Under the pieces are notes generated by a model. That model ran no database searches, was not told the origin of the DNA, and saw nothing but the letters and a program-made list of their open reading frames with translations. The translations under genes were made by a program, and so were the position numbers. Shown here piece after piece: positions 1 to 477 of a DNA stretch of 743 nt (within the stretch, counting starts at the first letter, position 1; every line of letters starts with the position of its first letter). The stretch comes from Escherichia coli (GTDB lineage: Bacteria > Pseudomonadota > Gammaproteobacteria > Enterobacterales > Enterobacteriaceae). Location of the stretch: NCBI RefSeq assembly GCF_003334335.1, contig NZ_QOWQ01000152.1; one strand, written 5' to 3'.

Positions 1-464
1 GGTAACGCAACACCTGCTGGCTGAGGAAAGGCTTTACCATCGGTTTCCGCTACGGATGCAGCTTCCGGCTCTGCCGGTAAATCAGCGCCCGGTATGCAGT
101 AACGAAATTTACCACCCTGATTCACGCGAATCAGACGCCCTTTGCTGATTGCCATGGCCAGCGATGAATTCGCCCGGCGGGAGGTAATCCCGAACATCAG
201 TGCCAGCTCATCCGCCGTTTGTGGGCCATGTTGTTCAATCGCCTCAGTCAGCATTTGCGCTGTCACTTTCGGTACCGGTGACACCGGTTCACTTTCACCA
301 GCCTGAATCAGCCACCACATCGAACCCTTGTTATCCGCTTCACCGCGGCGCTTCAGTTTCCACAGTTCGTTGACCGCATCTTCACGGCTGATTCCAAGGC
401 GGGCCGCCACTACCTGTGAAGAGGCTCTTTTCAGTGCTTTCAGTGCGTCAAATACGGTTTCCAT
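1..464 (-). CDS. Partial CDS: start codon in window, 3' end runs off at position 1. Hypothetical protein with two tandem winged-helix-like segments; putative DNA-binding regulator, family not recognised.
   Basis: Hand translation of the reverse complement from ATG at 464..462 gives 154 codons with no stop to the window edge: [160 protein letters not shown] Shine-Dalgarno lies 7 nt upstream of the ATG. Codon usage is rich in CTG, GCG, CCG, GAA and AAA. The product call is inference from sequence pattern only. Confidence 0.8.
263..296. repeat. 15-bp palindrome (ACCGGTG-a-CACCGGT, 274..288) flanked by 8-bp direct repeats (tcactttc at 263..270 and 289..296)
   Basis: Read directly. The palindrome has 7-bp arms around a single central base, with GGTACC overlapping at 271..276. 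The whole structure lies inside the downstream CDS, in the segment encoding [12 protein letters not shown] between the two winged-helix-like segments. Confidence 0.85.
429..446. repeat. Perfect tandem duplication of a 9-bp unit (plus strand tttcagtgc x2)
   Basis: Read directly: 429..437 and 438..446 are both tttcagtgc. On the minus strand this is GCA CTG AAA twice, encoding ALK-ALK at residues 7..12 of the downstream CDS. Confidence 0.9.
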
Positions 465-471
465 TAAAATT

Positions 472-477
472 TCCTCC
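472..477 (-). promoter_or_regulatory. Shine-Dalgarno / ribosome-binding site for the downstream CDS
   Basis: Plus-strand tcctcc at 472..477 reads GGAGGA on the minus strand, with a 7-nt AU-rich spacer (AAUUUUA) before the ATG at 464..462. Confidence 0.75.

Follow-up and report, generated by a model that had tools for sequence, protein, structure and literature searches.

What lies beyond a reading frame that is still open where the available sequence ends? This question is raised by a 743-nt stretch of Escherichia coli DNA (the window, by which we mean the whole stretch analysed), whose minus strand carries a gene that starts inside the window and runs out of it at position 1. The visible product ends in a tail rich in Pro, Ala and Glu, and the initial annotation took this tail to be a flexible linker that joins an N-terminal DNA-binding module to an unseen C-terminal domain, on which it would depend whether the protein is a plain regulator or a DNA-targeted effector. 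Here we follow the gene past the edge of the window in an identical genomic copy, place its product in a protein family and consider what the complete protein may do.

Results

The reading frame continues for 84 codons past the window

The gene occupies positions 1-464 of the window on the minus strand, which hold the first 154 of its 238 codons and two nucleotides of codon 155; its assignment to the DUF1627/YdaW family draws on the translation, on a 100% identical genomic copy and on Pfam and PHROG matches. Translation begins at an ATG at 462-464, with a Shine-Dalgarno sequence read directly from the DNA (GGAGG, 473-477, minus strand) 8 nt upstream and an in-frame TGA 10 codons upstream. It meets no stop codon down to position 1, confirming that the frame is open there, and the 154-codon partial translation terminates in ...[30 protein letters not shown].

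A segment of the E. coli JNEC-KY176 chromosome (3369283-3370025), located in a lambdoid prophage, is 100% identical to the window, and many other E. coli chromosomes are 99.5-99.9% identical to it; all such E. coli matches are annotated 'DUF1627 domain-containing protein' and 'replication protein P'. In the JNEC-KY176 locus (L001), the complete frame spans 7748-8464 on the minus strand and encodes 238 aa (WP_001529168.1, 'DUF1627 domain-containing protein'), with 84 codons lying past window position 1 (L001 7748-8000). The protein is therefore larger than its visible part, as had been proposed. Because the frame extends this far, the sequence below position 1 lacks the early stop, within a few codons, that would yield a product of about 160 aa. 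That so short a protein is made has next to no chance of being right: a naturally truncated copy is known, the 186-aa YdaW of the K-12 Rac prophage, but the genomes that match the window at 100% and at 99.9% carry an intact gene of 238 codons.

The product is a regular member of a catalogued phage family

Pfam DUF1627 (PF07789) matches aa 76-230 over its entire model (positions 1-155 of 155, E 8.9e-82), the other Pfam matches being marginal ones to helix-turn-helix (HTH) or winged-helix families. PHROG 630, a family of unknown function, covers nearly the whole protein (aa 1-237 against profile positions 1-252 of 253, E 4e-116). NCBIfam gave no family even at E values up to 1, and a single-sequence search of the PDB returned chance or low-complexity matches only. 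The protein matches both the DUF1627 and the PHROG 630 models in full and shares with these families its length, its block structure and its place after replication genes; nothing essential differs, the sequence of aa 169-192 representing an unusual allele. It is a regular member of the Pfam DUF1627 / PHROG 630 / YdaW family and as such an entity already known. We note that the Pfam model starts only at aa 76, so that it omits the first winged helix and treats the second winged helix, the linker and the helix that follows as one 'domain'.

The family is common. We found 2303 homologues, nearly all named DUF1627, and members occur in 1912 of 5426 complete E. coli genomes (35%), with as many as six matching places in one genome; they are abundant in Stx-type and other lambdoid prophages. 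A literature search for DUF1627, PF07789 and ydaW returned no functional study of a full-length member, only mentions of the family as a neighbourhood marker for the PasA/PasC sRNAs, as an uncharacterised predicted E. coli transcription factor and in a retron screen.

Two predicted winged helices that differ in charge precede the linker

To describe the architecture of the protein, we searched 1.84 billion cluster representatives (E up to 0.001), which yielded 155 relatives; the full-length ones measure 220-267 aa and align over aa 1-230. Thirty-three members of full-length type were aligned for the block, conservation and charge statistics given below, and AlphaFold2 was run on the same alignment (mean pLDDT 82). 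The pTM of 0.41, with the arrangement of the domains undefined, is as expected for beads on a string.

The first bead is a winged-helix domain, WH1 (aa 1-55; window 300-464, minus strand), delimited by AlphaFold2, alignment and charge. It comprises helices at 4-11, 16-23 and 27-39 and strands at 13-15, 43-46 and 49-52, all predicted at pLDDT 95-98. Its length is 55 aa throughout the family, with no gaps and a top-residue frequency of 0.60, and L34 and W50 are invariant. Linker 1 (aa 56-66; window 267-299, minus strand) is a short, variable joint rich in Pro, Ala, Lys and Glu, recognised by its variable length in the family (11-37 aa, 45% gaps, top-residue frequency 0.25) and by a pLDDT of 70-80. 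A second winged-helix domain, WH2 (aa 67-125; window 90-266, minus strand), follows, for which AlphaFold2, Foldseek and PDB profile matches and charge all speak; its predicted helices lie at 69-79, 84-91 and 95-107 and its strands at 112-116 and 119-123 (pLDDT 94-97), and in the family it measures 58-63 aa, with 9% gaps and a top-residue frequency of 0.47. The topology alpha1-beta1-alpha2-alpha3-beta2-beta3 is thus predicted twice, at pLDDT 94-98. No similarity between the sequences of WH1 and WH2 was detectable (BLASTP E 0.68), and an internal duplication was rejected as not demonstrable by sequence.

The two domains differ in charge. WH2 is basic in all 33 members (mean net charge +3.7), whereas WH1 is basic in only 4 of the 33 and acidic or neutral in most (mean net charge -1.6). 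Their ligands are probably different.

Searches with Foldseek against the PDB and viral models returned only winged-helix and tandem winged-helix proteins, MarR-like proteins among them, and left the C-terminal part unmatched. The solved tandem proteins (E 3.5e-5 to 1e-2, sequence identity 12-22%) include ScpB, the C-terminal winged-helix repeats of SelB, ESCRT-II subunits, DIP2311 and the winged-helix region of AlkX/YcaQ, all of which have two consecutive winged helices as here. None of them has an acidic linker and a basic C-terminal helix, so the resemblance is one of fold; TM-scores are low because the relative orientation of the domains is undefined. WH2 also drew recurrent weak matches, from the family profile and the AlphaFold2 model alike, to the Z-alpha/Z-beta winged helices of ADAR1, ZBP1, PKZ, poxvirus E3-like proteins and CyHV ORF112. 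Its identification as a Z-alpha-type winged helix was set aside, as the key Tyr falls off the conserved positions when the domain is aligned by eye with the ADAR1 Z-alpha sequence; a weak PADLOC match of WH2 to SWIM_XIII (E 0.008) was dismissed.

These results qualify the N-terminal DNA-binding module of the initial annotation. The winged-helix fold is present twice, but DNA binding is suggested at the level of the fold, only 4 of 33 members have a basic WH1, and the closest tandem structures include ScpB, ESCRT-II and SelB, which do not bind DNA. Within the window, no operator-like repeated sequence stood out. The presence of such proteins among the best structural matches, together with the net acidity of WH1 in most members, favours a different reading of the protein, as an adaptor or anti-defence factor whose winged helices are protein-interaction modules rather than DNA binders, and which counteracts a host defence or toxin while the phage grows, its linker and helix tethering it to a second target. 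We regard this as possible but rather unlikely. Against it, every member has a basic WH2, which is what a nucleic-acid binder would be expected to have, and PADLOC produced no match of note.

The tail is an acidic tether

The tail itself was located correctly to within one codon at 1-87: the 30 residues shown above correspond to aa 125-154 (window 3-92), and aa 126-154 to window 3-89. It forms the visible part of linker 2 (window 1-89, minus strand), a stretch rich in Pro, Ala and Glu, acidic and predicted to be disordered on the grounds of pLDDT, family gaps and charge, which extends to about aa 168, some 14 residues past the window.

Residues 126-154 consist of 28% Ala, 14% Pro, 10% Glu and 10% Gly, with a net charge of -4. 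Pro, Ala and Glu make up 15 of the 29 residues, a content reached in some 29-aa window by 9% of shuffles of the whole protein; with Gly included the count is 18 of 29, reached by 2% of shuffles. In this single sequence, then, the bias in composition is real but modest. The description of the tail as low in complexity was overstated, because its Shannon entropy is no lower than that of several folded stretches, while the enrichment in Pro, Ala and Glu stands.

The family gives a clearer picture. Across the 33 diverse members, linker 2 (aa 126-168) varies from 17 to 60 aa with 44% gaps, and its top-residue frequency is 0.21 compared with 0.47-0.60 in the domains. Its commonest residues family-wide are Ala, Pro and Glu, and it is acidic in 30 of the 33 (mean net charge -4.1). 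AlphaFold2 assigns aa 131-190 a pLDDT of only 49-61, with a single short helix (170-176), while the flanking domains exceed 90. Predicted disorder and variation in length and gaps within the family thus agree in strongly supporting the view of the tail as a flexible linker. Judged from the model and the alignment, window positions 1-87 are the first two thirds of a flexible, acidic tether rich in Pro, Ala and Glu and predicted to be disordered.

A short conserved module follows the tether

The residues hidden past the window (aa 155-238) comprise about 14 linker residues, a conserved motif of low pLDDT (aa 169-192; L001 7889-7960, outside the window) and a basic amphipathic helix of about 45 residues. 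The C-terminal block (aa 169-225) is nearly constant in the family, with a length of 54-59 aa, 4% gaps and a top-residue frequency of 0.50. In the 33-member alignment the consensus of the motif is I-P-x-F-T...D-D-L-I-x-P and that of the helix is E-I-R-R-T-K..L..L-E-K-L-R.A.R.L.K-H, with R201 invariant. The motif region is acidic in 29 of the 33 members; the helix (aa 193-237) is basic in all of them, with a mean net charge of +6.5. AlphaFold2 predicts helices at 193-222 and 224-237 (pLDDT 91-94), and a conserved hydrophobic face runs along them with a spacing of three to four residues (193, 196, 200, 207, 210, 213, 217, 220, 227 and 230). When two copies of the block were fused through a linker as a pseudo-homodimer, AlphaFold2 arrived at no confident assembly (mean pLDDT 57.8, pTM 0.45, four of five models near 45), a result that speaks neither for nor against oligomerisation.

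The motif of the present protein is atypical, with Q-P-S-I in place of the I-P-x-F of the family, and its aa 169-192 share only 58% identity with relatives whose flanking domains are about 90% identical to its own. A likeness between the SSB C-terminal tip and an acidic linker followed by 'D-I-P-x-F' was set aside because the motif is internal and is not kept in this protein.

Searched alone against Pfam, the C-terminal block matches DUF1627 only (model positions 90-155, E 2.3e-32), and its profile finds nothing in the PDB below E 0.15. No enzymatic or other known domain was found in Pfam beyond DUF1627, in NCBIfam, in sequence and profile searches of the PDB, in PADLOC or with Foldseek. An unseen C-terminal element does therefore follow the linker, as anticipated, but it is small and helical, and none of the libraries searched connects it with a catalytic family. 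This bears directly on the idea of a DNA-targeted effector with a catalytic or otherwise large C-terminal domain past the window. All that spoke for such a protein was the open frame with its linker-like tail, and the idea now appears extremely improbable: the remaining 84 residues amount to linker, short motif and helix, a domain search of this remainder gives DUF1627 and nothing further in Pfam, NCBIfam, the PDB or PADLOC, and family members measure 220-267 aa. Variants of 300-340 aa owe their length to a third winged helix or to an N-terminal replication-like stretch, and have no added C-terminal domain.

The C-terminal block is the constant part of a modular and mosaic family

The winged helices, carried on linkers rich in Pro, Ala and Glu, vary in number from one to three. 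Most members combine two winged helices with the C-terminal block, but the same block follows a single winged helix in P0140 (167 aa), P0155 (138 aa) and P0237 and three winged helices in P0164 (311 aa) and P0202 (308 aa). The constant feature of the family is thus the C-terminal block, not the number of winged helices. In a few longer proteins (P0125, P0149) the block follows an N-terminal stretch which, on inspection by eye, looks like replication proteins; these may be deletion fusions.

Breaks in homology are seen at the level of DNA. Some phages match only window 1-248, with a break in homology at about 245-250 (about aa 73), and in many E. coli copies the match ends at gene position 494-501, about aa 73-75. 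At an identity of at least 99%, 182 records match the window and only 91 the whole gene. Since homology often breaks at linker 1 and the window is matched by twice as many records, the gene itself is, as far as such sequence comparisons go, mosaic, with some of its homology breakpoints at linker 1.

The gene follows replication genes and occupies the position of lambda ren

Upstream of the gene in the window, on the minus strand, lie the last 81 codons and the stop codon of a gene for replication protein P, a helicase loader (498-743, running off at 743), identified by translation and by annotation (WP_000139447.1); it matches PHROG 109, the P-like helicase loaders, with E 4.5e-54. Between it and the DUF1627 gene lie a 33-nt spacer and the strong Shine-Dalgarno sequence. 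A promoter scan of the window found none, an Rfam search of the window found no match at E values up to 1, and the DNA repeats in the window are short pairs at chance level. Two weak terminator-like hairpins, where 0.7 were expected, were treated as chance; the one at 523-507 (5 bp), shortly before the stop codon of P, is probably fortuitous.

In the JNEC-KY176 prophage the gene order is cI-like, cro-like, YdaT, O, P, the DUF1627 gene, nin-type genes, RusA and the Q-region, such that the DUF1627 gene stands directly after an O-like/DnaT-like initiator and a lambda-P-type helicase loader on the same strand. Comparable settings recur in unrelated prophages: the gene follows a lambda-P gene in a relative with three winged helices, an O/DnaD-type gene in a relative of 26% identity and a DnaC-type gene in Rac and phage 666R9; in a distant member (L004) the preceding gene is exonuclease-like and not a replication gene. 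The downstream neighbours vary among loci, which argues against a fixed phage-encoded partner.

Immediately downstream in JNEC-KY176, the TGA stop codon of the gene overlaps, as GTGA (L001 7748-7751, 253 nt downstream of window position 1), the GTG start codon of a 105-aa HTH protein (PHROG 323). This overlap suggests that the two genes may be translationally coupled, and in the relative P0123 a frameshift has fused them. Elsewhere in this prophage are a YdaS/YdaT-type pair, beside the repressor, and, within the immunity region, a RelB/RelE toxin-antitoxin pair (L001 10058-10743 and 11369-11850), with hokD further downstream.

Lambda ren, like the DUF1627 gene, is the first gene after P and lies on the same strand. 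This shared position raises the idea that the protein is a counterpart of Ren, shielding the phage from Rex-like exclusion, and that WH2 is a diverged Ren domain. In support of this, aa 71-120 show weak PHROG matches to 'Ren-like exclusion protein' families (phrog_142, E 6.4e-5; phrog_16568, E 0.0099), and hhalign pairs the whole of WH2 with Ren residues 4-62. Generic HTH families score alike, however (phrog_633, E 5.2e-5; MarR, E 2.4e-4), BLASTP detects no homology to lambda Ren (E 1.7), and the profile-profile probability is only 19% against Ren alone and 23% against an alignment of 14 Ren sequences. Ren itself is a single domain of 96 aa and lacks both the linker and the C-terminal block of this protein. 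We therefore rejected homology to lambda Ren at the sequence and profile level, and consider a Ren-type role very unlikely.

The K-12 Rac copy is a truncated member

The K-12 Rac prophage encodes a relative, YdaW (b1361; L003 3753-4313), which corresponds to about window 48-464 and is 58% identical over aa 1-139 (BLASTP E 3e-56). The two genes share both their homology and their place after prophage replication genes, ydaU-ydaV-ydaW in Rac corresponding to O-like gene, P and this gene here. YdaW has the two winged helices and the first part of the linker. Homology stops after AEPKAASV, inside linker 2, and gives way to an unrelated tail of 35 aa, and so the 186-aa YdaW, unlike the present protein, is without the conserved C-terminal motif and helix. 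Intact YdaW-family proteins of phages such as vB_EcoS-666R9 have the same linker and C-terminal block as described here.

It is this truncated copy that hints at a link between the family and host defence. In a preprint on retrons, K-12 ydaW appears in a list of prophage genes whose overexpression blocks the retron-Sen2 toxin RcaT (bioRxiv 10.1101/2020.06.22.160242), which favours an adaptor or anti-defence function for the two winged helices that the fragment retains. The location of the gene in the accessory nin-type region, where lambda has the exclusion-related ren, points the same way. In the text consulted, however, the blocking of RcaT is one result of an overexpression screen, given with no follow-up, and the C-terminal block is absent from K-12 YdaW.

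Discussion

In our preferred reading, which we hold to be probable, positions 1-87 of the window encode part of an acidic tether rich in Pro, Ala and Glu within a 238-aa accessory protein of lambdoid prophages, built as beads on a string, and not part of a DNA-targeted enzyme. The position of the gene suggests that it would be made together with the delayed-early genes upon induction or infection. The basic WH2, as modelled, would then contact nucleic acid, while linker 2 would contribute only flexibility and reach. Anchoring would fall to the C-terminal basic helix together with the motif that precedes it, the helix either associating with itself or docking on a partner encoded outside the fixed neighbouring genes, possibly a host protein.

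A broader proposal can be made for the family as a whole, although we think it unlikely to hold. DUF1627/YdaW proteins could be widespread lambdoid-phage adaptors, not ordinary transcription regulators, in which one to three winged helices are carried on acidic tethers and the basic helix docks on a host factor, so as to counteract a defence or toxin of the host or else modulate the replication of the phage.

The answer to what the window had hidden is plain: a short conserved helical module and no effector, in a family already catalogued, such that the discovery value is small. The results nevertheless bear on how the family is read. Screens use the truncated K-12 YdaW, without the conserved C-terminus, and this calls for caution in interpreting YdaW results. 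For the family in general, a map of two winged helices, an acidic tether, a motif and a basic helix, with winged helices that vary in number, conveys more than the one Pfam DUF model does.
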